Shown piece after piece: positions 1,536-39,931 of a DNA stretch of 43,023 nucleotides. The DNA is from Chloroflexota bacterium (GTDB lineage Bacteria > Chloroflexota > Chloroflexia > Chloroflexales > Herpetosiphonaceae). The first letter of the stretch is position 1; every line of letters begins with the position of its first letter. The stretch is taken from positions 1 to 43,023 of the forward strand of contig JAIUOC010000003.1 of the NCBI GenBank assembly GCA_020161265.1, written 5' to 3'. The position numbers and the translations under genes were made by a program. A model generated the notes under the pieces. The model was not told where the DNA came from, did no database searches, and worked only from the letters and a program-made list of their open reading frames with translations.

Positions 1536-1961
1536 GTGGCAAAGAAAGTAACCGCAGTCGTTAAGTTGCAATTGCCTGCTGGTAAAGCAACGCCTGCACC
1601 ACCCGTTGGTCCTGCACTTGGTGCAACTGGTATCAACATTATGGCGTTTTGTAAAGATTACAACGAAAAAACGTCAGCTCAAGTTGGTACAATTATTCCA
1701 GTTGAAATTACGGTTTATTCAGACCGCTCTTTCACCTATATTCTCAAAACCCCACCTGCTGCCGACTTATTGCGCAAGGCTGCTGGCATTCAGCGTGGTA
1801 GCGGTAAAACTGGTACCCAAGGGGCTGGCTCAATCACCCGCGCTCAATTACGCCAATTGGCTGAAACCAAAATGCCTGATTTGAACGCTAATGATATCGA
1901 AGCTGCCGAAAAAATTATTGCTGGTACCGCCCGCTCAATGGGTATTGCGATCAAAGACTAA
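1536..1961 (+). CDS. rplK: 50S ribosomal protein L11
   Basis: [29 protein letters not shown]...[12 protein letters not shown] is the L11 signature. GTG start has AAGGAG 7 nt upstream. Confidence 0.95.
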
Positions 1962-1970
1962 GTGAAAATA

Positions 1971-2140
1971 TGAAGGATGAATGATGAATTATGAATTAGT
2001 TTTCATCCTTTGATTTTTACATAGTCAGCCGATTAAATTATTGAAACCAAGCTATGAAGTGATGGCTGAACGATTTTTATCCTTCATCCCTCATCCTTCA
2101 TCCTTATAGATGTTGTGGCAGAAGTTCACGCTTCGTAAAG
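1971..2140. repeat. GGATGAA / TTCATCC module repeat element within the rplK-rplA spacer
   Basis: aaggatgaa (1972-1980) pairs with ttcatcctt (2003-2011). ttatccttcatccctcatccttcatcctta lies at 2077-2106, and gttcacgcttcgt at 2124-2136. The same GGATGAAGGATGAA unit recurs at 18676-18688. Confidence 0.5.
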
Positions 2141-2161
2141 ACCACAAGGAGCTAATTGTTC

Positions 2162-2875
2162 ATGGCAAAGCAACACGGTAAAAAATACCTGGCTGCTGCG
2201 GCAAAAGTAGAAGCAGATCGCTTGTACACGCCCGAAGAAGCTGCGGCTTTGGTCAAAGAAACTTCGTTCACCAATTTTGATGCAACCGTTGAAGTCCACG
2301 TGCGCTTGGGTATCGATCCTCGCCACGCCGACCAAACGGTGCGGAGCACTGCTTCGTTGCCCCACGGCACCGGTAAGAGCGTGCGCGTGTTGGTTTTCGC
2401 TCAAGGCGATACCGAAAACATCGCTCGCAATGCTGGCGCTGAAATCGTTGGCGGCGATGAGTTGATCCAACGCATCGAAAAAGAAAACTTCATCGATTTC
2501 GACGTAGCGGTTGCTACCCCCGACATGATGGGTAAGGTCGGTCGCTTAGGCCGGATTCTCGGTCGCCGTGGCTTGATGCCAAACCCCAAGAGCGGTACGG
2601 TTGTGCCTCCTGGCGATTTGCCTCAAGCGATCAAGGCTTTGCAAGGCGGTCGCGTCGAATTCCGCAACGATAAAACTGGTTTGTTGCACGTTGCCATCGG
2701 CAAAATCAGCTTCACCCCTGATCAAATCCGCGAAAACTTGGTAGTGTTGTTGGATGCGATCAAGGCTGCTAAGCCAAGTGGTTCAAAAGGTGTTTACATC
2801 AAGAGCATTACCCTGACCAGCACCATGGGCCCTGGGATTCCGCTCGATGTGAATGTTGCTCAAGCAACTGCCTAA
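2162..2875 (+). CDS. rplA: 50S ribosomal protein L1
   Basis: [27 protein letters not shown]... is L1 family. AAGGAG lies at 2142-2147. The start could instead be TTG 2156. Confidence 0.93.
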
Positions 2876-2888
2876 TTGTCACCAGCGA

Positions 2889-2928
2889 TCAGCGGGAATG
2901 GCTACTGCCGTTCCCGCTGATGTTGTTT
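2889..2928 (+). terminator. Intrinsic terminator after rplA (10-bp stem, T-rich tail)
   Basis: tcagcgggaa (2889-2898) pairs with ttcccgctga (2911-2920), then tgttgtttta. It lies between convergent rplA and the DDAH-like gene. Confidence 0.6.
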
Positions 2929-3704
2929 TAGCCCTCAGTTTCGTGAATCAGCACGCTGCAACAGGTCAACGCGCCCTCAGCCTTCGTCAACTCGCTGTTA
3001 TCGACCAAAATTAATTGGTAGCCCCGCTGGCGTAAGCGTTCAGCAGTTGCCGAATAGGCCTGATCGTAGAGTAAGCGCCCATCGTGCAGTTGGACCACAT
3101 TCGCCGCAAATTCCTCACGCGGGTCAACTTCGATCACCTGATAATCAGCAAACATTCGCGGTTCGACCCACAGTGGGTTGAGCAAGACGGTATTGCTATC
3201 AACCGCACAAACAGCAGTTTTCAGATGCAAACATTGGCCTAATTCAACCCCCTGGACACGATAGCCAAATGCGGCGGTTAATGCCTGCACCTGCTCGACC
3301 GCTGCCTGATTGCTGCGGCTCGAAAGCCCAATCCAAATCGTTTTGCCCAAAACTACTACATCGCCGCCATCGAGGGTGGCTGGTTCGCTCAGCCATGCTA
3401 GTTGGCGGTAGTTTTGCAATACGCTGGCCATGGCTGCCAACTCTGGGCGACGTGATGCAGCACCAGGCCGCGTGATGATCGCCAGCTCTGAAAAGACCAA
3501 GGCCGTGTCTTCCACAAACACCGAATCAGCCAAATCTTCGGCTACACTGAGTTCGACGACCTGATAGCCGTTGGCCGCCAGTGTGGTGCAATAACCGGCA
3601 TGTTGGCTTTGAGCGCGGCTAAAATCAATTGGCTGCCGTTCAAGATGAGTCAATTCACACTGTTGAATCGCCGGACTAACCGGACGTACAATTGCGGTTG
3701 GCAT
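2928..3704 (-). CDS. Amidinotransferase-superfamily hydrolase, N(G),N(G)-dimethylarginine dimethylaminohydrolase (DDAH)-like
   Basis: 258 aa with pentein-fold features and a C-terminal catalytic-Cys context ...ALTCCSVLIHETEG typical of the DDAH / arginine deiminase family. Confidence 0.55.
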   Translation of the reverse strand: MPTAIVRPVSPAIQQCELTHLERQPIDFSRAQSQHAGYCTTLAANGYQVVELSVAEDLADSVFVEDTALVFSELAIITRPGAASRRPELAAMASVLQNYRQLAWLSEPATLDGGDVVVLGKTIWIGLSSRSNQAAVEQVQALTAAFGYRVQGVELGQCLHLKTAVCAVDSNTVLLNPLWVEPRMFADYQVIEVDPREEFAANVVQLHDGRLLYDQAYSATAERLRQRGYQLILVDNSELTKAEGALTCCSVLIHETEG

Positions 3705-3856
3705 AGAAATTGCTATCCTCCTTGGCTACTTCTAAAGATCCACGTATGTACCACAGGCAGTCGTTCTACGATGGTTTACCGTATAATAACAATAGCATTC
3801 GCATGTTTGCCAGCATCAGGTGTTGGCCAAGCACCAACCTATGGAGGGGTTGCGCC

Positions 3857-5242
3857 ATGGAATTTCGAATGGGTATGTCGCCGGAGGCGCTAGCACAACA
3901 AGCTATGTCAACCAAAGCCTCGCCCGCTTTGATTGCACTTAACAATATGCTGGTGCTTTCAACCCACGAATTGCAACAATTGATCCAACAAGAGCTAGAG
4001 GAGAATCCCGCTTTAGAGAATGTTGACCTAGAGCCAGATGAAACCTGCTCGCGTTGTGGCCGCCCCTTAATCGAGATGCTCTGTTTATACTGCGTTCACG
4101 AAGATCAGCGCTTGGCCGAGGCTGAACGTGGCGATTATACCGCTGCTGGCGAAGACGATGAATTTGATCCATTAATGATGGTGGCGACTCCCGCTCAACT
4201 TAGCGAGGTGTTGCTACGCGATTTACGCGCTTCGTTGCCCGAGCAAGATTATTTTATCGCTGAATATTTGGTTGGCTGTTTGGACGACCAAGGCTTTCTC
4301 GATGCTAACACTGCCGATATTGCTGCAACCATGACGATCGACGAAGAACGGGTGATTGCGGTTTTGCTCAAATTGCAAGATATTGCCCCAGTTGGAGTTG
4401 GGGCGCGTGATGTGCAAGAATGTTTGTTGTTGCAGTTGCGCCGTTTAGAAGAAGAAGATGTACGTCACCCCTATGTGGAGCGAGTGATTACCGAATTTTG
4501 GAATGATTTGGCAGAGCATCGCTATGGGGCAATTGCCCAGGCGCTCAATGCTGAATACGATGATGTGGTTGAAGTGCGCGAGTTTATTCGTGAACATTTG
4601 CGCCCCTATCCGTTGGCGCTCAGTGGCGAAGGCTCAGCCCGCACCAACTATATTATGCCCGATGTGATTATTCGCGAGAACGAGGGCAAACTCGAAGCCG
4701 AAGTGCTGATGTCAGATCGTAGCTTCTTGCGAATTAATCCGCTGTATCAATCGCTGGCTAAACGTGGTCGCGAAGCTGAAGCTGAAATGTCTTCGGAAGA
4801 GCGCGATCATCTTAGTCAATATGTAGCACGTGCTCAAATGTTCCTGACCAATATTCGCCAACGCCGTGAAACCATCCGCCGAATTAGCGAATTTTTGATT
4901 GAAACCCAAGAAGATTTCTTGCGCCAAGGTGTGCGATTTCTGCGGCCAATGACCCGCGCCGAGGTTGCTGATGGCATTGGTGTGCACGAATCAACTGTGA
5001 GTCGTGCGACTGCCAACAAATATGTGCAACTGCCTAATCGCTCGGTGATTCCATTTAGCCATTTTTTCACAGCCTCGTTGAATGTTAAGGATGTGCTGTT
5101 AGAATTGGTGCAAAACGAAGTGCGCCCACTCACCGACCAAGAGTTGGTTGAATTGTTGGCTGAACGTGGCTTTGAGGTGGCGCGGCGCACGATTGCCAAA
5201 TATCGTAATCAATTGAATATTTTGCCCTCAACCTTGCGCTAA
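3857..5242 (+). CDS. rpoN: RNA polymerase sigma-54 factor
   Basis: Region I LxLxxxLQQLxQQELEENPALE, a core-binding region, an HTH and the C-terminal RpoN box ARRTIAKYRNQLNI. GGAGGGG lies 8 nt upstream of ATG 3857. The track ORF 3710.. is an unsupported 5' extension. Confidence 0.85.
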   Translation: MEFRMGMSPEALAQQAMSTKASPALIALNNMLVLSTHELQQLIQQELEENPALENVDLEPDETCSRCGRPLIEMLCLYCVHEDQRLAEAERGDYTAAGEDDEFDPLMMVATPAQLSEVLLRDLRASLPEQDYFIAEYLVGCLDDQGFLDANTADIAATMTIDEERVIAVLLKLQDIAPVGVGARDVQECLLLQLRRLEEEDVRHPYVERVITEFWNDLAEHRYGAIAQALNAEYDDVVEVREFIREHLRPYPLALSGEGSARTNYIMPDVIIRENEGKLEAEVLMSDRSFLRINPLYQSLAKRGREAEAEMSSEERDHLSQYVARAQMFLTNIRQRRETIRRISEFLIETQEDFLRQGVRFLRPMTRAEVADGIGVHESTVSRATANKYVQLPNRSVIPFSHFFTASLNVKDVLLELVQNEVRPLTDQELVELLAERGFEVARRTIAKYRNQLNILPSTLR

Positions 5243-6891: not shown

Positions 6892-6960
6892 TGTTGCTTG
6901 ACAAGATATTCCTGAACCCTAGCCCCTAGTCGCTGGCCCCTCGATAAAAGGAGTTTTACG

Positions 6961-7263
6961 ATGACTGACGATTTACGTGATGAACTTCGTGAGTTAGCGG
7001 GATATCGCAATGAAGAAAGTGATATTTTGGGTGTTTTCAATGCTGATGAAATTGAACAAACCCAAGATTTTACTGTGACCGACATTGAACAAGGCGAAAC
7101 CGAAGCGTATGCCGATTTGAGCGAACCCTTCGAGTCGCTTGATGAATTAACTAGCGAAAACTTACGCGAAGGTGAAACCGACGACGTGATGGAGGCAATC
7201 CAAGAAGGTCTCAGTTATGTGCCCCCAATCGACGACCCTTTAGATTTTGATGATCCTGAGTAG
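6961..7263 (+). CDS. Highly acidic small protein, function unknown
   Basis: 100 aa, about 36 % Asp+Glu, no hydrophobic core evident. AAAGGAG lies 7 nt upstream of ATG. Confidence 0.5.
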   Translation: MTDDLRDELRELAGYRNEESDILGVFNADEIEQTQDFTVTDIEQGETEAYADLSEPFESLDELTSENLREGETDDVMEAIQEGLSYVPPIDDPLDFDDPE

Positions 7264-7268
7264 GAATG

Positions 7269-7342
7269 CGGCTATGGGCTTATGCTGTTCTCATCAGTTT
7301 ATGATGCGATGCCCATAGCCATTATTCCTCTGCGCTTCTACG
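7269..7342. repeat. GGCTATGGGC / GCCCATAGCC hairpin plus an ATTATTCCTCTGCGCTTCT module between convergent genes
   Basis: ggctatgggc (7271-7280) pairs with gcccatagcc (7311-7320). The following attattcctctgcgcttct closely matches ataatacctctgcgcttct at 27141-27159. Confidence 0.5.
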
Positions 7343-7388
7343 TTATTGGCGGATGTCTGATTTCTAACAACTAATCCTCAATCCCCGC

Positions 7389-18600: not shown

Positions 18601-18800
18601 AGAGAAGCGTAGAACGCAAGGACGAATGAAAAGTCAAAAGGCAGAAGTCAAAAGGCAAAAGAACATAGAGCAAAGGATGAAGGATGAAAATAAAAGCCAA
18701 AGGCAAAAGATTGTGCTGGCTTAACCGCGAAGAACACGAAGAGCACTAAACTTATAGGATAAAAAGCCTTTGTGTGCTTCGTGTTCTTCGTGGTTAAAAT
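18601..18800. repeat. Composite repeat element: GTCAAAAGGCA x2, GAACATAG, GGATGAAGGATGAA and a CACGAAG-based 24-bp imperfect palindrome
   Basis: aaccgcgaagaacacgaagagcac (18723-18746) pairs with gtgtgcttcgtgttcttcgtggtt (18771-18794). On the minus strand the hairpin is followed by T-rich sequence, so it probably doubles as the panC terminator. Confidence 0.5.
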
Positions 18801-20300: not shown

Positions 20301-20390
20301 ACAGCGTTGCAACGTGGTCGCTGGGGAATCGAAACATAGCTGGATGTGAGTTGTAATTGGGAGCGGTCTCAAAACCTGTCAAGCATTGTA

Positions 20391-20590
20391 GGGGTCAGGG
20401 GCTAGGATTCAGGGGTCAGTAAGTGTAGAACATAGGGATATGGCTATGGGCGCTAGGCGATCGGAATATGCTTTGAGTTTGCATAAGTTATCGATCCTGT
20501 GGACAAAAGCTTATAGTCAATTTTTCTTCGCGATCTTCGTGTGCTTCGTGGTTGCAATCATCCTGACCCCTGATCCCTGACGGCTGATCC
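20391..20590. repeat. About 200-bp imperfect palindromic repeat element immediately upstream of the pectate lyase gene
   Basis: Left arm ggggtcaggggctaggattcaggggtcag (20391-20419), then gaacatag, ggctatggg and cttcgcgatcttcgtgtgcttcgtgg modules. Right arm cctgacccctgatccctgacggctgatcc (20562-20590). Confidence 0.55.
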
Positions 20591-20610
20591 CTAAAATTAG
20601 GAGTTTACCA

Positions 20611-22047
20611 ATGAAATTATCAATTGCCCGACGTTGGGTTATTGCCACCGGCTTAGCCACCGCCTTGATTGGCGTAATCCAAAGCCCAATCACCAATGCC
20701 CAAAGTGGCCTAAGCTGCCAAGTTAATTATGCGGTTACCAATCAATGGGGTAGCGGTTTTCAAGCCGATGTGGTCGTGCGCAACACCGGAGCCAGCGTGA
20801 TCAATGGCTGGACAGTTGCTTGGAGTGCCGCCAGCGGCCAGCAAGTTGGCCAAATGTGGAATGCAACCTTTACCCAAAGTGGCAGCCAAGTCAGTGCTAA
20901 AAATGTTGATTGGAACGCGAGCATCGCCGCTGGTGGCAGCCAAAGTTTTGGCTTTACCGCTACCACGACTGGTAGCTTGGCCGTGCCCAGCGGCTTTACG
21001 GTTAATGGCGTAAGTTGTGGCGGCAGCATTAGCCCAACCGCCACCCGCACGCCAGCCGCGACTGCCACCCGCACGCCAGCCGCGACTGCCACCCGCACGC
21101 CAGCTGCAACTGCTACCCGTACTCCAATTGCCACGGCTACCGTCGTTCCAACCAATCCACCGGTCAGCAATGGCTTGATTGGCTGGGCCACGGTTGCTGG
21201 TTCGGGCTTGAGCACAACCACTGGTGGCGCTGGCGGCAGCACAGTTACCGCAGCCAACTTTACTGAATTACAAAACTACGCCAAATCATCATCACCCATG
21301 ATTATCAAGTTCTCAGGCACAATGCAAGGCACACTGACGGTTGCCTCGAACAAAACGATCCTCGGTAGTAACGGAGCCTTGATCCAAGGTAATGTCAAAA
21401 TCTCAGGCGCTCAAAATATTATTTTGCAAAATTTTGCAATCAACGGTAATAGCTGCTCAAGCTACGATAATTGCCGCGCTGGCAGCGATGCCTTGGGGAT
21501 TAGCAATTCGCACCATATTTGGGCCGACCACCTGACGATTACCAATGGCCAAGATGGCAACTTTGATATCAACAATGGCTCGGATTTCATCACGGTTTCG
21601 TGGAGCAAATTCGGCTATACCACCAACAAAGAGCATCGTTTCTCAAACTTGATTGGTAGCTCAGACGATGCAGCCTCGACCGATAGCGGTAAATTGAACG
21701 TGACCTTCCATCATAACTGGTGGTTTGGCGGGGCAATGCAGCGTATGCCACGCACGCGCTTCGGCAAAATTCACGTATTCAATAATTTGTACACCACCAC
21801 GGGCAACGATTATTGCGTTAGCTCAGGCTATCAATCCAAAGTGTTGCTCGAAAATAATGCCTTCATTGGGGTCAACACGCCGCACCGCTTGCACGATGGC
21901 GATCTCAAGGCTTTAGGCAACCTCTACCAAAACACCAGCGGCGACCAAATTAGCACTGGCGTTGCTTTCACTCCGCCCTACAGCTATAGCGCCGAAGCCG
22001 CTAGCTCGCTCAGCAGTTCAGTCCAGGCTGGCGCAGGGGCGAAGTAA
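20611..22047 (+). CDS. Secreted CBM2-linker-pectate lyase (PL1-like)
   Basis: Signal peptide; CBM2a (CQVNYAVTNQWGSGFQADVVVRNTG...VNGVSCGG); (TPAATATR)x4 linker; lyase motifs IWADH, NGQDGNFDI and QRMPRTRFG. AGGAG lies 8 nt upstream of ATG. Confidence 0.8.
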   Translation: MKLSIARRWVIATGLATALIGVIQSPITNAQSGLSCQVNYAVTNQWGSGFQADVVVRNTGASVINGWTVAWSAASGQQVGQMWNATFTQSGSQVSAKNVDWNASIAAGGSQSFGFTATTTGSLAVPSGFTVNGVSCGGSISPTATRTPAATATRTPAATATRTPAATATRTPIATATVVPTNPPVSNGLIGWATVAGSGLSTTTGGAGGSTVTAANFTELQNYAKSSSPMIIKFSGTMQGTLTVASNKTILGSNGALIQGNVKISGAQNIILQNFAINGNSCSSYDNCRAGSDALGISNSHHIWADHLTITNGQDGNFDINNGSDFITVSWSKFGYTTNKEHRFSNLIGSSDDAASTDSGKLNVTFHHNWWFGGAMQRMPRTRFGKIHVFNNLYTTTGNDYCVSSGYQSKVLLENNAFIGVNTPHRLHDGDLKALGNLYQNTSGDQISTGVAFTPPYSYSAEAASSLSSSVQAGAGAK

Positions 22048-22050
22048 TAC

Positions 22051-22232
22051 GAGGGGATCAGGGGCTAGGATTCAGGGATCAGGGGTTAGAACATAGAACA
22101 TAGAGCAGAGAACATAGCATTAGCCTTCATGTTCTTAGTGGTTTCAATCGTTCTAGCCCTAACACCTGATCCCTGAATCCTCAAGAGTAGTTTCAATTGA
22201 CCTGACCCCTAGCCCCTGATCCCTGACCCCTC
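22051..22232. repeat. Nested imperfect palindromic repeat element between the two lyase genes
   Basis: Outer arms 22053-22070 / 22201-22230, inner arms ggattcagggatcaggggttag (22067-22088) / ctaacacctgatccctgaatcc (22159-22180), and a central gaacatag x3. The left arm is 27/29 identical to 20391-20419. Confidence 0.6.
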
Positions 22233-24862: not shown

Positions 24863-27028
24863 ATGCAGTATGAGCAACAAATTGAAGCATTGTTGGCCCA
24901 AATGACTCTTGCCGAGAAGATTGGCCAAATGCGCCAGCTTCATGGCACTGGCGAACATCAGCAACAACTGGTGCGCGAAGGCAACTTGGGGTCGGTTTTG
25001 AATGTGATTGATGCTGATGCCCACGAAATTCAGCGCATTGCCGTTGAAGAATCACGCTTGGGCATTCCGCTGTTAATTGGCCGCGATGTGATCCACGGTT
25101 TTCGCACAATCTTCCCAATTCCACTTGGCCAGGCTGCTTCGTTTAATCCTCAGCTTGTGCGCGAAGCCGCGCGGATTGCCGCCCGCGAAGCCTCGGCCTC
25201 AGGGATCAACTGGACATTCGCCCCGATGATCGATATTTCACGCGACCCACGTTGGGGCCGCATCGCCGAAAGCTGTGGCGAAGATGCCTATCTTTCAAGT
25301 TTGATGGGTGTAGCGATGGTCGAGGGCTTTCAAGGCGACGATTTGACCGCCCCCGATGCGATTGCTGCTTGTGCCAAACATTATGTGGGCTATGGCGCAA
25401 GCGAAAATGGCCGCGATTACAACACTGCTTGGATTCCCGAAGTGCTCTTGCGTGATGTGTATTTAGCGCCATTCAAAGCTGCTGCCGATGCTGGGGTGGC
25501 CACCATGATGAGCGCCTTCCACGATTTAAATGGCGTGCCAACTTCGGGCAACGAATTTACGCTGCGCCAAATCTTAAAAGGCGAGTGGAACTACGATGGC
25601 ATGGTGGTCAGCGATTGGGCCTCGGTTGCCGAAATGATCGCCCATGGCTATGCCGCTGATTTGCGCGATGCGGCCTTGAAAGGCGTAACGGCTGGGGTCG
25701 ATATGGAAATGGCCAGCACCAGCTATGCCGAATATCTAGCTGAATTGATCGAAAGTGGCGCACTCAGCCTCGATTTAATTGATGATGCTGTGCGGCGGAT
25801 ATTGCGCATCAAGTTCCGTTTGGGCTTATTCAACCAACCCTATGCCAACGCAGCGGCAGCTGAATCGTTAGTTGCGCCTGATCATTTGGCCTTGGCTCGC
25901 CAAATTGCCAAAGAAAGTTGTGTGTTGTTGAGCAATCAGCAAACTTTGCCGCTCAACCGACAACAAACGCGGGTGGCAATTGTTGGGCCGCTCGCTAATC
26001 ATGCCGCCGATCAACTGGGCTGTTGGGTGTTCGATGGCAAGCCCGAAGATAGCCAAACCCCGTTGCAAGCGATTCGCGCATTGCTTGGCGCTGAGCAGGT
26101 GCAATTTGCCCAAGGTTTGCCCGAAGCCCGCAGCTTAGATCAAAGTTTGTTTGACGAGGCAGTCGCGGCGGCTCAATCTGCTGATGTAGTTATCGCCTTC
26201 CTCGGTGAAGATGCTGGCTTGAGTGGCGAAGCCCATAGCCGCGCCTTCATCGATTTACCTGGCGCACAACTGGCCTTGGTCGATGCCTTGGTGGCAACCG
26301 GCAAGCCAGTGGTTGCGGTCGTGATGGCTGGGCGCTCGTTGGTGTTGGGCGAATTGCAAGCTAAAGTGCAAGCAATTTTATATGCTTGGCATCCAGGTAC
26401 GATGGCTGGCCCTGCAATCGCCGATTTGCTGTTTGGCTTGGATAACCCTTCAGGCCGCTTGCCGATTAGCTTCCCGCGCACGGTTGGTCAAGTGCCAATC
26501 TACTACAGCCGCAAAAACACTGGCCGCCCGCCAAGCGAAGATGCCCCAAGCATTCCCACGGGTACGCCGCTTGATCCCAGTGGCTTTACCTCAAGCTATC
26601 TCGATGTTGATCATCGGCCCTTGTTTGCTTTTGGTTATGGCTTGAGCTACAGCACATTTAGCTATAGCAATTTAGGTTTATCGAGCCAAAAACTCACTAT
26701 CGGCGATACGCTCAGCATCACCGCCACAATTACCAACACAGGTAAGTATGCTGGCACAGAAGTTGTGCAATTGTATATTCGCGATTTGGTTGGCTGTATG
26801 ACTCGGCCAATCAAAGAACTCAAAGGCTTCCAACGGATTCATTTGGAGCCAGGCCAGAGCCAAACGGTAACATTTGAACTGAGCAGCGCTGACTTGAGTT
26901 TCCATAACAATGCCATGCAACGGATCGTCGAGCCAGGCGAATTTAATCTTTGGGTTGCGCCAAGCAGCCTTGGTGGTTTGCAGGCAAGCTTTGAATTAGT
27001 AGCCGAGAGCAAAGAACATAGAGCATAG
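24863..27028 (+). CDS. Glycoside hydrolase family 3 beta-glucosidase (BglX-like)
   Basis: GH3 N-terminal domain (GRDVIHGFRTIFPIPLG, KHYVGYGASENGRDYN), the SDW catalytic region, the C-terminal alpha/beta domain and an Fn3-like tail. 721 aa. Confidence 0.9.
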   Translation: MQYEQQIEALLAQMTLAEKIGQMRQLHGTGEHQQQLVREGNLGSVLNVIDADAHEIQRIAVEESRLGIPLLIGRDVIHGFRTIFPIPLGQAASFNPQLVREAARIAAREASASGINWTFAPMIDISRDPRWGRIAESCGEDAYLSSLMGVAMVEGFQGDDLTAPDAIAACAKHYVGYGASENGRDYNTAWIPEVLLRDVYLAPFKAAADAGVATMMSAFHDLNGVPTSGNEFTLRQILKGEWNYDGMVVSDWASVAEMIAHGYAADLRDAALKGVTAGVDMEMASTSYAEYLAELIESGALSLDLIDDAVRRILRIKFRLGLFNQPYANAAAAESLVAPDHLALARQIAKESCVLLSNQQTLPLNRQQTRVAIVGPLANHAADQLGCWVFDGKPEDSQTPLQAIRALLGAEQVQFAQGLPEARSLDQSLFDEAVAAAQSADVVIAFLGEDAGLSGEAHSRAFIDLPGAQLALVDALVATGKPVVAVVMAGRSLVLGELQAKVQAILYAWHPGTMAGPAIADLLFGLDNPSGRLPISFPRTVGQVPIYYSRKNTGRPPSEDAPSIPTGTPLDPSGFTSSYLDVDHRPLFAFGYGLSYSTFSYSNLGLSSQKLTIGDTLSITATITNTGKYAGTEVVQLYIRDLVGCMTRPIKELKGFQRIHLEPGQSQTVTFELSSADLSFHNNAMQRIVEPGEFNLWVAPSSLGGLQASFELVAESKEHRA

Positions 27029-27160
27029 AATATAAAACCAGTTCTGGTTCACGAAGAGAGAATAGGCTATAGGCTATAGGCTATAGGCTATTGGTTTTCA
27101 ACAAATGTTCCGCCAGCCAATAGCCTTCAGCCTCAAGCCATAATACCTCTGCGCTTCTGG
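27014..27160. repeat. Composite repeat element: GAACATAGAGCATAG, CACGAAGAGAGAATA, (GGCTATAG)x4, CCAATAGCC, ATAATACCTCTGCGCTTCT
   Basis: ttcacgaagagagaataggctataggctataggctataggctattgg (27049-27097) is nearly identical to 28640-28678, which has one fewer GGCTATNG unit. The GH3 stop codon lies inside the GAACATAG module. Confidence 0.6.
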
Positions 27161-37006: not shown

Positions 37007-39931
37007 ATGAAATCATTTGAACATACCCAACTGGGTGAGTATACATTGCAAGAAGAGATTGGCCGTGGCGGGATGGCGCAAGTCTATCGAGCGCAGCATC
37101 AAGCCTATGGTCTGGTTGCATTCAAAGTATTACCACCCTATTTTGCCCACGATAACGATACGCTTCAGCGCTTTATGCGTGAGGCGCGGGCCAATCGCAC
37201 TTTGCACCACCCACATATTGTGCAATTGTATGAAGCCAGCGACATTGCCCAAGCCCAAAACCCCTACCAGCCGATTCACTATATCGCTATGGAATATATC
37301 GCTGGGGGTACGCTGACTGATCGCTTGCGTCAACAGCCGCAACAGCCATTAAACACGACGCTTGAAATGGGTGAGCAAATTGGCTCGGCCTTGGATTATG
37401 CCCATGGCAAGGGTTTTATTCACCGCGATATCAAGCCGAGTAATATTTTGTTTCGTAGCAACGGCCATGCTGTGCTCGCCGACTTTGGGATTGCTCTCGC
37501 CAACAATGAGGCCCGTATGACCAAGGCTGGCGGTTTTGCTGGCACGGTCGCCTATACTGCGCCTGAAATTTTCGAGGGCGAAACCGCCGATGTGCGCTCG
37601 GATATTTATGCCTTGGGCTTGATTCTGTATGAATCGTTGGCTGGGCATAACCCCTATGCCAACATCAGCACTAATGCCCAAATTGCCATGAGCAAAATTT
37701 TAACGACGCCGCTGCCACCATTGCAAGATGTTGCGCCGCATGTGCCCCCGTTAACGGCTGAAATTTTGGCTCAAGCAACCGCCAAAGATCCAATTCGACG
37801 CTTTGCCACGATGTCGGATTTTGTCGAGGCCTTGAAACAAGCTAAATTTAATCGGGTCAGCGATCGACCTGCGCAACAATTGAATGCCAGTGGTCGCCCG
37901 ATGATTCCAATTGCTGGTCGGCCTGGAGCGCCAAATCGCCCACCACCACGCAATCAGCCAAGTGGCGATAACCCAACTCAAGCCTTTGTAGCTGGGGTTG
38001 CTGCCTCATCTGCGGCAGCTGCGGCCATGCCTGAGGCTAACGAAGGCACGATGATCTACACGCCGCCGACACCAAATCCGGTGGTCAATCAACAGGCTGC
38101 GCCACCACCAAACGAGCCAACCCAAATCTACACGCCACCAACCCCGAATCCAGTGGTGCAACAACCTGCGCCAGCGGCCAAGCCGCCAGTTGATGCAACT
38201 CAAATCTACACGCCACCAACGCCGAATCCGGTGGTGCAACAACCTGCACCAGTGGCTAAACCGCCAGTTGATGCAACCCAGATTTATACGCCACCAGCGG
38301 CCAACCCACCGTTGCGTCAAGCGCCGATTACCCAGCCAAATCAACCCTTGCCGAGTGTGCAGTCCCAGCCCAACCAATCGTTGCCAGCTGCGCCGACGAT
38401 GCCGCTGGATAACCAAAGCACCATGATGTACACGCCAAATGCAAGCGTGCCCAATCAGCCAATTCCAAGCCGTACCAACCAACCAGTTGATAACGAAAGC
38501 ACCGTGATGTATCCGGCCTATCCGCCGAATCAGCCACAAGCTTATCCACCGCCAGCAACTGGTAACCAAACCTATATGCCGCCTACGGGTAATCAGGCCT
38601 ATCCACCAGCAACTGGCAATCAAACCTATCAACCTATGGCTGGGGCTTCGCAGCCAAACCAGCAACTGCCAAAAAAGGGGCCAGCGCGGCCAATTAATGC
38701 CCAACGGATTGACCTTGCGCGACCTGCGGCTCCTGTTCAAGCAGCTCAGGCAGCGGAAACTGAATATGCGCCAGCGCCACCGCCCTATGCTATGCCACCA
38801 AAAGCATCGCCAGTCGCGAGAGCCAAGGATTTCTTCCGTTCGCCAAAGGTTCTCGTGGCCTTAGGTAGTGCACTTTTAGCCTTGATTGTGATTGCATTTT
38901 TGAGCTTTGGCCAAGGCGAGGACGATCCAAATATTGCTAGTGGTGCTACGGCTACCTCAGTAGTTGCAGTTGGTGAGAGTACTCCAACGGTTGCGGCAAC
39001 CAATGCGGCCACCCCAACTGTGGCCGAAACCGCCGATCCCCAAGAGGCCAAACGCTTAGAGTATATTGTTGGGCAAGAGGCCTATGCCAAACAAGATTGG
39101 CCTAATGCAGCGGCGGCCTTCGATAAAGTGCTCGCCATCGATCCAGCCTATCTTGATTTGAGCAACATTGGCTCGGCAACTTACTACAATTGGGCGGTCA
39201 GCGAGTTGACTGGCCCCGACAACGTTGCTGAAAGCTTGGAAATTCTCAACAAAACCTTTAGTTTCAAGCCCGACCATCAACCAGGTGGTAACTTAGCCAA
39301 AGTGCTGAATGTCTATCGCAATGGCCAAACTGCCGCCGAACAACAAGATTGGCAAGCAGCGATTAATGGCTATAAAGAAGCCCAAACCGCTGGTAGCGCT
39401 GAGTTTGGCGAGCTTATGGGTAAGCTACAAACCGTCAAGCAATTGTACGAGGCCTATCTTGGACGCGGGCGAGAGCTAGAAGAGGCTGGCGATACCGCTG
39501 AGGCCAATGCGATCTATCGCGAAGCTGCCGCCCTCAAGGATCTGGACAGCAGTTTAGACGTTGCTACTGCTAACACTCGGATTGCGGCAACCCAACCAAC
39601 CGCCGTGCCAGCGACCCCAACTAAGCCAGCACCACCAACGACTGCTCCGGTAGCTCAACGCTTGTACTTCCAAAAATATGCCGAAAATGCGGTTGATCCA
39701 ACCTGTTTTGCCGTGCATATTCGTGGGGTTAACACGGGCGGCTGGTTTGTGACCGTCGATGGGCTAGGCAATCGCGGCAATGTCGATGGCGCTGGTAATA
39801 CCAATGTTTGTGGATTGTCCCCCAGCCAAGAAGTGACCTTCACGGTTTACAATGGCTCTGGGCAAGCCGTGCCAGGTGGCGGCGGCATCCCAACTCGTGG
39901 TGGCGATTTGATGACCGGCTATTGGCAATAA
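37007..39931 (+). CDS. Membrane-anchored Hanks-type Ser/Thr protein kinase with a tandem Pro-rich repeat linker and an extracytoplasmic TPR-like domain
   Basis: VAFKVL (Lys), HRDIKPSNILF, DFGIA and TAPE motifs. (TQIYTPPTPNPVVQQPAPxAKPPVDA)x3-4 repeats. TM helix VLVALGSALLALIVIAFLSF. 974 aa. Confidence 0.9.
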   Translation: MKSFEHTQLGEYTLQEEIGRGGMAQVYRAQHQAYGLVAFKVLPPYFAHDNDTLQRFMREARANRTLHHPHIVQLYEASDIAQAQNPYQPIHYIAMEYIAGGTLTDRLRQQPQQPLNTTLEMGEQIGSALDYAHGKGFIHRDIKPSNILFRSNGHAVLADFGIALANNEARMTKAGGFAGTVAYTAPEIFEGETADVRSDIYALGLILYESLAGHNPYANISTNAQIAMSKILTTPLPPLQDVAPHVPPLTAEILAQATAKDPIRRFATMSDFVEALKQAKFNRVSDRPAQQLNASGRPMIPIAGRPGAPNRPPPRNQPSGDNPTQAFVAGVAASSAAAAAMPEANEGTMIYTPPTPNPVVNQQAAPPPNEPTQIYTPPTPNPVVQQPAPAAKPPVDATQIYTPPTPNPVVQQPAPVAKPPVDATQIYTPPAANPPLRQAPITQPNQPLPSVQSQPNQSLPAAPTMPLDNQSTMMYTPNASVPNQPIPSRTNQPVDNESTVMYPAYPPNQPQAYPPPATGNQTYMPPTGNQAYPPATGNQTYQPMAGASQPNQQLPKKGPARPINAQRIDLARPAAPVQAAQAAETEYAPAPPPYAMPPKASPVARAKDFFRSPKVLVALGSALLALIVIAFLSFGQGEDDPNIASGATATSVVAVGESTPTVAATNAATPTVAETADPQEAKRLEYIVGQEAYAKQDWPNAAAAFDKVLAIDPAYLDLSNIGSATYYNWAVSELTGPDNVAESLEILNKTFSFKPDHQPGGNLAKVLNVYRNGQTAAEQQDWQAAINGYKEAQTAGSAEFGELMGKLQTVKQLYEAYLGRGRELEEAGDTAEANAIYREAAALKDLDSSLDVATANTRIAATQPTAVPATPTKPAPPTTAPVAQRLYFQKYAENAVDPTCFAVHIRGVNTGGWFVTVDGLGNRGNVDGAGNTNVCGLSPSQEVTFTVYNGSGQAVPGGGGIPTRGGDLMTGYWQ

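Follow-up and report, generated by a model that had tools for sequence, protein, structure and literature searches.

A predicted L1 operator is probably intact beside a heptamer-repeat cassette in the rplK-rplA spacer of Herpetosiphon

The rplK-rplA spacer of a Herpetosiphon genome, which separates the genes for ribosomal proteins L11 and L1, is a composite of two unrelated parts: a heptamer-repeat cassette (1962..2112) and, directly after it, a predicted L1 autoregulatory operator (2113..2147). The spacer was analyzed within a 43,023-nucleotide stretch of DNA (GenBank assembly GCA_020161265.1, contig JAIUOC010000003.1, positions 1 to 43,023), hereafter the window; features lie on the + strand unless stated otherwise. 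The operator is very probably intact before rplA, and the neighboring cassette, which resembles the short tandemly repeated repetitive (STRR) heptanucleotide sequences of cyanobacteria, leaves it undamaged. Because the operator is intact 3' of the cassette, the repeat appears to have been added beside the control site without damage. Judged from sequence, L1 autoregulation is almost certainly intact in Herpetosiphon. The spacer is A+T-rich and 200 nt long, from the rplK stop codon (1959-1961) to the ATG of rplA (2162), in agreement with the length of about 200 bp given in a preliminary description of this DNA.

The operator was identified with a covariance model and a minimum free energy (MFE) fold, and it has a helix-bulge-helix form resembling the L1 stalk of 23S rRNA. 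In the MFE fold, a 6-bp outer helix P1, UUGUGG/CCACAA (2113-2118 with 2142-2147), is followed by a 2-nt 5' bulge CA (2119-2120), a 5-bp inner helix P2, GAAGU/GCUUC (2121-2125 with 2130-2134), the apical loop UCAC (2126-2129), and a 7-nt 3' bulge GUAAAGA (2135-2141). Folding of 2111-2155 by MFE reproduces the structure of the model operator exactly. The L1-interacting RNA family has a stem of 6-12 bp broken by an asymmetric internal loop, a form that the operator shares, and the operator keeps both the unpaired A of the 5' bulge and the A at 2141 that precedes the 3' strand of P1. The Shine-Dalgarno (SD) sequence of rplA, AAGGAG (2146..2151), was read from the sequence and overlaps the 3' end of P1; relatives show the same ACCAC-N-AGGAG arrangement. 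P1 ends 16 nt before the rplA start, within the family range of 8-22 nt, and the operator plus the SD up to the ATG fills the last ~50 nt of the spacer (2113-2161).

The same structure was found across the phylum. We drew the rplK-rplA spacer from 160 Chloroflexota loci (labelled L plus a number), of which 124 carried the pattern GUGG-GA-(P2)-G...A-CCAC followed by AGGAG and a start codon. In these 124 loci the distance from the rplK stop codon to P1 had a median of 6 nt (interquartile range 4-18), and the operator began no more than 12 nt past the stop codon in 87. In Herpetosiphon this distance is 152-158 nt. A leader alignment and covariance model (CM R1) were built from 45 leaders, none of them from Herpetosiphon. 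P1 was invariant in the alignment, double changes occurred at 5 of 6 P2 pairs, 92.6% of cells were paired, and the P2 covariation score was matched by 0 of 500 shuffles. The top match of CM R1 in the whole window was 2111-2160 (14.2 bits, E about 0.03 by a rough calibration), and the homologous sites of H. giganteus and H. geysericola were matched at 15 bits. Among ~20 Herpetosiphon sequences, P1, both bulges and 4 bp of P2 were invariant apart from one G-C to G-U change in L083. The apical loop was hypervariable among the strains, with a closing pair of C-G, U-A or U-G, and 97% of cells paired across 10 distinct leaders from Herpetosiphon and L015. Across the strains and species of Herpetosiphon, only the operator part of the spacer is constant, and the repeat part is exchanged as a whole.

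The consensus pattern of the leaders also matched E. coli 23S rRNA once, at nt 2121-2177, which is the L1 stalk (H77/H78). The outer helix GUGG/CCAC is identical in the operator and in this E. coli 23S rRNA. CM R1 itself failed to recover the L1 stalk when run on the E. coli 23S rRNA, owing to the long insertion that H78 represents and to the inclusion of the SD and ATG in the model. A search of Rfam matched no family at the gathering threshold over the whole window, and with E up to 10 over 1400-2400 it gave chance snoRNA and PYLIS matches only; ribosomal protein leaders such as that of L1 are typically absent from Rfam (Fu, Deiorio-Haggar, Anthony & Meyer 2013, PMC3616713). A metagenome scan with RplA found no close relatives of Herpetosiphon (best 73% identity) and added more distant spacers only. 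In a few Chloroflexota, an operator-like motif was located 5' of rplK (L031 2471-2520, L010 1662-1696, L013 2320-2351, and L011 1474-1502). Because the rplK-rplA spacers of these loci are without the motif, the location of the operator switches within the phylum.

L1-mRNA complexes are known from archaea and bacteria (PMC2175363), and an L1-interacting RNA directly before rplA has been described in Chloroflexi, Cyanobacteria and Actinobacteria, with a Geobacillus example that binds at nM concentrations (Fu et al. 2013, PMC3616713). In Chloroflexi, a position between rplK and rplA is thus the normal one. The window operator shares with this RNA its place directly before rplA, the adjacent SD, and a short stem with an asymmetric internal loop. 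It differs in its CA rather than GA bulge, in an A/U-rich P2 (GAAG/CUUC in Herpetosiphon versus GGGC/GCCC in the family), and in lying ~153 nt rather than ~6 nt from the rplK stop codon. Compared with the consensus of 114 relatives, it is one base apart (5' bulge GA to CA). The conserved bulge G could take part in a G-A pair, and the 5' bulge is GA in 114 of the 124 operator-bearing loci, AA in L098, and CA in Herpetosiphon and L015 only. L015 belongs to an unrelated lineage without the Herpetosiphon cassette, yet has the same CA bulge.

Several observations weigh against an intact operator beside a merely tolerated repeat. The CM R1 score is modest (14.2 bits, E about 0.03, rough calibration), the isolated operator hairpin is no more stable than shuffles (z -0.5), and the 5' bulge has C in place of the G found in 114 of 124 relatives. 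In addition, the cassette may be under selection, as its conserved length (193-206 nt), its boundaries and its two-hairpin layout occur in two unrelated forms and its arrays are polar. Some of these points also bear on the interpretation in the preliminary description, in which the inserted repeat may disrupt, replace or mimic the L1 leader; rplA regulation would then be altered or lost. The spacer is four times the usual length, no Rfam family was detected in it, the bulge base is nonconsensus, and the P2 helix (GAAG/CUUC) is similar to the core sequence of the CACGAAG/CTTCGTG repeats. However, the leader is complete directly 3' of the repeat with the usual spacing to SD and start codon, it is the best model match and the most conserved part of the spacer, and the comparative data contradict a disrupted leader. 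The repeat arrays stop 7 nt before P1, and the CA bulge of L015 occurs without this cassette. The nonamer CACGCTTCG (2127-2135), which had been taken as a further repeat fragment, is unique in the window and occurs at chance frequency (9 matches at no more than 1 mismatch versus 11.6 expected). It lies outside the enriched CACGAAG family, and the MFE fold identifies CACGCUUCG as the apical loop plus the P2 3' strand of the operator. Loss or mimicry of the leader is therefore very improbable, whereas the other half of the interpretation, a repeat segment lodged in the spacer, agrees with the stop-to-operator distance of 152-158 nt against a median of 6 nt.

The cassette of the window, designated type I, extends from the rplK stop codon to the operator, is lineage specific, and is absent in most Chloroflexota. 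It consists of ~150 nt of inverted arrays, (GGATGAA)n followed by (TTCATCC)n, which form two hairpins. Tandem Repeats Finder (TRF) reported a purine-rich, GGATGAA-like period-7 array at 1970-1996 (3.9 copies, 90% matches) and a pyrimidine-rich ATCCTTC array at 2079-2105 (3.9 copies, 90% matches). Hairpin A (1956..2026, 71 nt) takes the last codon and the stop codon of rplK into its base pairs. Its core arms are GAAGGAUGAA (1972-1981) and UUCAUCCUUU (2002-2011), where GAAGGATGAA pairs with TTCATCCTT(T), and a U-run past the core is itself base-paired. With a folding free energy (dG) of -26.0 kcal/mol and a z score of -7.3, hairpin A was matched by 0 of 200 shuffles; its counterparts reach -27.3 kcal/mol (z -5.9) in H. 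giganteus and -22.5 and -24.9 kcal/mol (z -3.4 and -4.9) in the type II forms described below. An A+U-rich linker (2027..2053), which in both the MFE and the centroid fold has mostly weak pairing or none, separates it from hairpin B (2054..2101), in which the degenerate purine-rich arm AUGAAGUGAUGGCUGAACGAU pairs with the (AUCCUUC)n array at 2079-2105. Hairpin B is modest (dG -13.7 kcal/mol, z -2.6), as are its counterparts in other strains (-12.3, -11.5 and -14.7 kcal/mol; z range overall -1.7 to -2.9). Pairing of the left and right arrays over the long range was considered as the main fold and rejected, since both the MFE and the centroid folds favor two local hairpins.

The repeat nature of the cassette is clear from motif counts, which were above every shuffle. 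CCTTCATCC occurs 3 times in the window versus 0.23 expected, and TCATCCTTCATCC occurs 6 times at no more than 2 mismatches versus 0.86 expected, with its sole match beyond the spacer at 18675-18687. Two elements of the preliminary description are real and nonrandom: its hairpin (1972-2011), which is the core of hairpin A, and its (TTCATCC)n block (2077-2106), which corresponds to the second array. The third proposed element, CACGCTTCG, belongs to the operator. The likeness to other repeat loci also held, as the heptamer units of the spacer recur at 18630-18690, with the GGATGAA unit at 18673-18688.

An A+T-rich region with strong hairpins might be expected to hold an internal promoter or a terminator or attenuator, which would make rplA a separate transcription unit. 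In the open reading frame (ORF) list and consensus scans, 1962-2161 showed no small ORF, no sigma-70-like promoter (sigma-70-type consensus sequences being the only ones scanned), and no intrinsic terminator with a GC-rich stem and a T tract. The U-run past the hairpin A core is not free but base-paired, and the candidate closest to the spacer in the terminator scan lies at 2888-2921, after rplA. The cassette was accordingly rejected as an intrinsic terminator or attenuator, and a separate rplA transcription unit is hardly credible.

Strains with an L1 or L11 identical to that of the window carry either of two cassette forms. Type I, (GGATGAA)n...(TTCATCC)n, is found in the window, L170, L081, L083-86, L088-89, L175 and L179, and type II, (AAAAGGC)n...(GACTTTT)n, in H. 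aurantiacus DSM 785, L176, L180-183 and L087. The compared segments were 1962-2112 of the window, L174 1727-1880, L082 1688-1842, L001 2801-2950 and L002 2795-2950. Global alignment of the two types gave z values of only 1.6-2.7 for the entire sequences and 1.1 when limited to the central part; convincing homology is thus lacking, and a common origin was rejected. Both types nevertheless have the same boundaries, spacer lengths of 193-206 nt, the two-hairpin layout, and the rplK stop codon inside hairpin A, and they swap cleanly between the constant flanks TAAGTGAAA and GATGTTGTGG. H. giganteus has type I and H. geysericola type II, with flanks 98-98.6% identical. Between the aurantiacus and giganteus/geysericola clades, the flanks are ~93% identical, type I 87%, and type II 81%. 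Both types occur in both clades, and haplotypes of the flanks in the aurantiacus clade show no grouping according to cassette type. Therefore, either both forms are older than the split of the clades or they have passed between them, and recombination has broken their linkage to the flanks. In L175 (GCA_039545135.1, spacer 1727-1919, 193 nt), the cassette is type I minus exactly one heptamer of the left array, a copy-number change expected from slippage.

The clean swap of types between constant flanks, the mutually complementary left and right arrays of both types, and intergenic regions that differ among strains by whole repeat-rich blocks could all be produced by a miniature mobile element of the MITE or REP kind, with heptamer arrays as terminal inverted repeats, inserted in two versions at a favored target next to the rplK stop codon. 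However, the 43-kb window contains no second full-length copy of either type, only array matches of no more than 31 nt. No target-site duplication was visible at the cassette, and no empty site was found among ~20 Herpetosiphon sequences. The MFE fold prefers two local hairpins to pairing of the terminal repeats, and the exact one-heptamer change points to slippage. A MITE- or REP-type element was therefore rejected on copies and target-site duplication in the window, although the arms are inverted-repeat-like, and a mobile origin is considered unlikely.

The cassette is one member of a repeat population that is probably genome-wide. TRF found 12 arrays of period 7 with 2.8 copies or more in the window, with heptamer units that include GGATGAA, AAAAGGC, CCTGACC, AGAACAT and ATAGGCT. 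All stringent period-7 and period-9 arrays lie outside genes, and one flag within a coding sequence (CDS) was due to an over-long ORF call. The arrays show a polarity with respect to genes when read on the sense strand: those rich in purines occupy the 5' side, often directly past the upstream stop codon, and those rich in pyrimidines the 3' side, at 18-126 nt from the downstream start codon. The distances separate the two classes perfectly in about 11 arrays, a small sample. Polar arrays were located at 1970-2105, 18629-18688, 20390-20592, 22055-22231, 27006-27145, 28615-28760 and 31219-31314. A second family consists of the nonamers CACGAAGNN and the complement CTTCGTG, often in inverted pairs and interleaved with heptamer arrays; CACGAAG occurs 18 times in the window versus 4.25 expected. 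Sites of this family lie at 18728-18792, 20527-20556 and 30947-31185 of the window, L171 6620-6690, and L172 6610-6730. Past a DAGK-like gene, close strains differ by whole blocks (window 6892-7388, L172 6601-6738, L171 6616-7036). The window and L170 have there a 100-amino-acid ORF (6961-7263) with a CCTGAAC-type heptamer leader, and L172 and L171 have nonamer and heptamer repeat blocks or other genes in its place.

Heptamer arrays are also common beyond Herpetosiphon. In 770 kb of Chloroflexota loci, period 7 was the commonest tandem period (68 arrays; period 6 had 20 and period 8 had 8), and the arrays often formed inverted pairs. Other Chloroflexia (L104, L092, L098, L107 and L134) have their own heptamer arrays or hairpins between the rplK stop codon and the L1 operator, among them (AACGTGA)3...(CACGTTT)3 in L104 (395-470), which folds at -32.8 kcal/mol, and an array of 13 copies in L134. 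These lineages placed heptamer hairpins at this site independently. L013 and L031 also have arrays directly past the rplK stop codon, but their operator lies before rplK.

These comparisons bear on a selected role of the cassette at the RNA level, as an intercistronic stabilizer or insulator or as a platform for a single-strand-binding protein of the Csp- or S1-like kind that reads heptamers, with two functionally equivalent alleles kept in the population. The conserved architecture, the dimorphism and the polarity of the arrays make this a serious rival, and we regard it as possible, if clearly the less probable account. Two unrelated sequences keep the same boundaries, length and two-hairpin layout with the rplK stop codon in hairpin A; both forms occur in both clades and have diverged in parallel with them, and the flank haplotypes are not clustered by cassette type. 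The polarity of the window arrays and the independent hairpins at the same site, such as that of L104, are consistent with it, and translational roles have been proposed for heptamer repeats 5' of start codons, those in ribosomal protein operons included (MacGregor 2015, PMC4679880). In contrast, hairpin B is weak (z -1.7 to -2.9), the polarity sample is small (about 12 arrays), and a 6-nt gap suffices in most Chloroflexota. Template switching in quasi-palindromes can hold arms complementary without selection, and the strain-to-strain gain and loss of similar arrays elsewhere resembles neutral flux. A wider proposal is more doubtful still: that a polar hairpin system fills stop-to-SD spacers in filamentous Chloroflexia, and that the two rplK-rplA forms, unrelated yet equivalent in structure, are a trans-species polymorphism kept in an essential ribosomal protein operon and tuning the coupling of the operator to rplK translation and the stability of the rplK cistron.

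Among known repeats, the closest likeness is to the STRR heptanucleotide repeats that Mazel et al. reportedly described in filamentous cyanobacteria in 1990. Heptamer direct repeats have also been found between genes in Beggiatoaceae, Cyanobacteria and Bacteroidetes, also inside ribosomal protein operons (MacGregor 2015, PMC4679880). The arrays of the window resemble STRR and Beggiatoaceae heptamers in their period of 7, their 3-5 tandem copies, and their intergenic position at many loci, often near start codons, and the host, as with STRR, is a filamentous gliding bacterium. They differ in phylum (Chloroflexota), in having many units rather than one dominant unit, and in forming inverted, hairpin-forming pairs with a purine-rich arm 5' and a pyrimidine-rich arm 3'. 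Membership in the named cyanobacterial STRR families was rejected, as the units of this Chloroflexota host are of a like kind but of other sequence. Literature searches turned up no description of heptamer or tandem repeats for Herpetosiphon, whose genome paper mentions CRISPR repeats only. Like REP and BIME elements of Enterobacteria, the cassette is an imperfect palindrome between cistrons that could stabilize the 3' end of the upstream cistron (REP/REPIN background in PMC3733652 and PMC3116915). It differs from them in having no conserved family sequence, arms made of tandem heptamers, no sign of RAYT-type mobilization, and no further full-length copies in the window.

The surrounding locus has the gene order tuf end, rpmG, secE, nusG, rplK, 200-nt spacer and rplA at the start of the window. 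In the ORF list, the rplK CDS spans 1536..1961 with a GTG start and a TAA stop, and an identical protein in public contigs carries the Pfam domains Ribosomal_L11_N and Ribosomal_L11. RplK of H. aurantiacus DSM 785 has the same sequence, those of H. giganteus and H. geysericola share 98.6% identity with it, and RplA of the window is 94-95% identical to RplA of the latter two species. Because of these identities, the window is placed in the aurantiacus group of Herpetosiphon. The rplA CDS spans 2162..2875 in the ORF list. Its start is ambiguous (2156-2164), with an in-frame TTG at 2156, 4 nt past the SD, and the ATG at 2162, 10 nt past the SD; the ATG is preferred from homologues, which begin MAK..., and from public gene calls with a 237-amino-acid product. 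The terminator scan placed a terminator-like hairpin at 2888..2921 (15-bp stem with 9 GC pairs and a T-rich tail), which appears to close the rplKA unit. No rplJ-rplL follows rplA (2876-5242); instead, the hairpin is followed by an amidinotransferase/ADI-like gene (2928-3704, ORF list) convergent to rplA and then by rpoN (sigma-54). Longer in-frame tandem repeats occur in large ORFs of the window (24-nt units in 3.6-4.5 copies; 78-nt units in 2.3 copies, 21035-21141 and 38118-38296) and are unrelated to the intergenic heptamers.

Altogether, the cassette is best explained as a tolerated repeat expansion that may serve as an RNA hairpin between the cistrons. As in the rest of the family, L1 in excess over free 23S rRNA would bind the operator and block ribosome loading on rplA, and the bound L1 would occlude the overlapping SD and thereby repress rplA. 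The intergenic 7-mer and 9-mer arrays most likely arose by replication slippage and template switching in quasi-palindromes, and the cassette would be an expansion of the few bases that normally lie between the rplK stop codon and the operator. It is probably tolerated because the operator, the SD and the start geometry are untouched. The cassette would move the operator beyond ribosomes terminating on rplK, and the operator would therefore fold and be read by L1 independently of rplK translation. When rplA is repressed, hairpin A could remain on the rplK cistron as a stable 3' stem-loop and protect that cistron. The cassette may have such consequences for the operator and the rplK cistron, and near-neutrality is equally possible.

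The apparent anomaly of a repeat inside this spacer is thereby resolved, with the operator lying where it is expected for Chloroflexi. Its change of a near-invariant bulge G to C is a natural variant that offers a ready test of the contacts L1 needs. In addition, heptamer arrays that form hairpins, so far recorded chiefly in filamentous cyanobacteria and Beggiatoaceae, extend to a new phylum, where they are pervasive in Herpetosiphon and other Chloroflexia and have repeatedly colonized the few bases between the rplK stop codon and the L1 operator. The two-allele cassette, which crosses species and has lost its linkage to the flanks, is a tractable case in which to learn if such repeats act as functional RNA or are neutral by-products that replication leaves behind.

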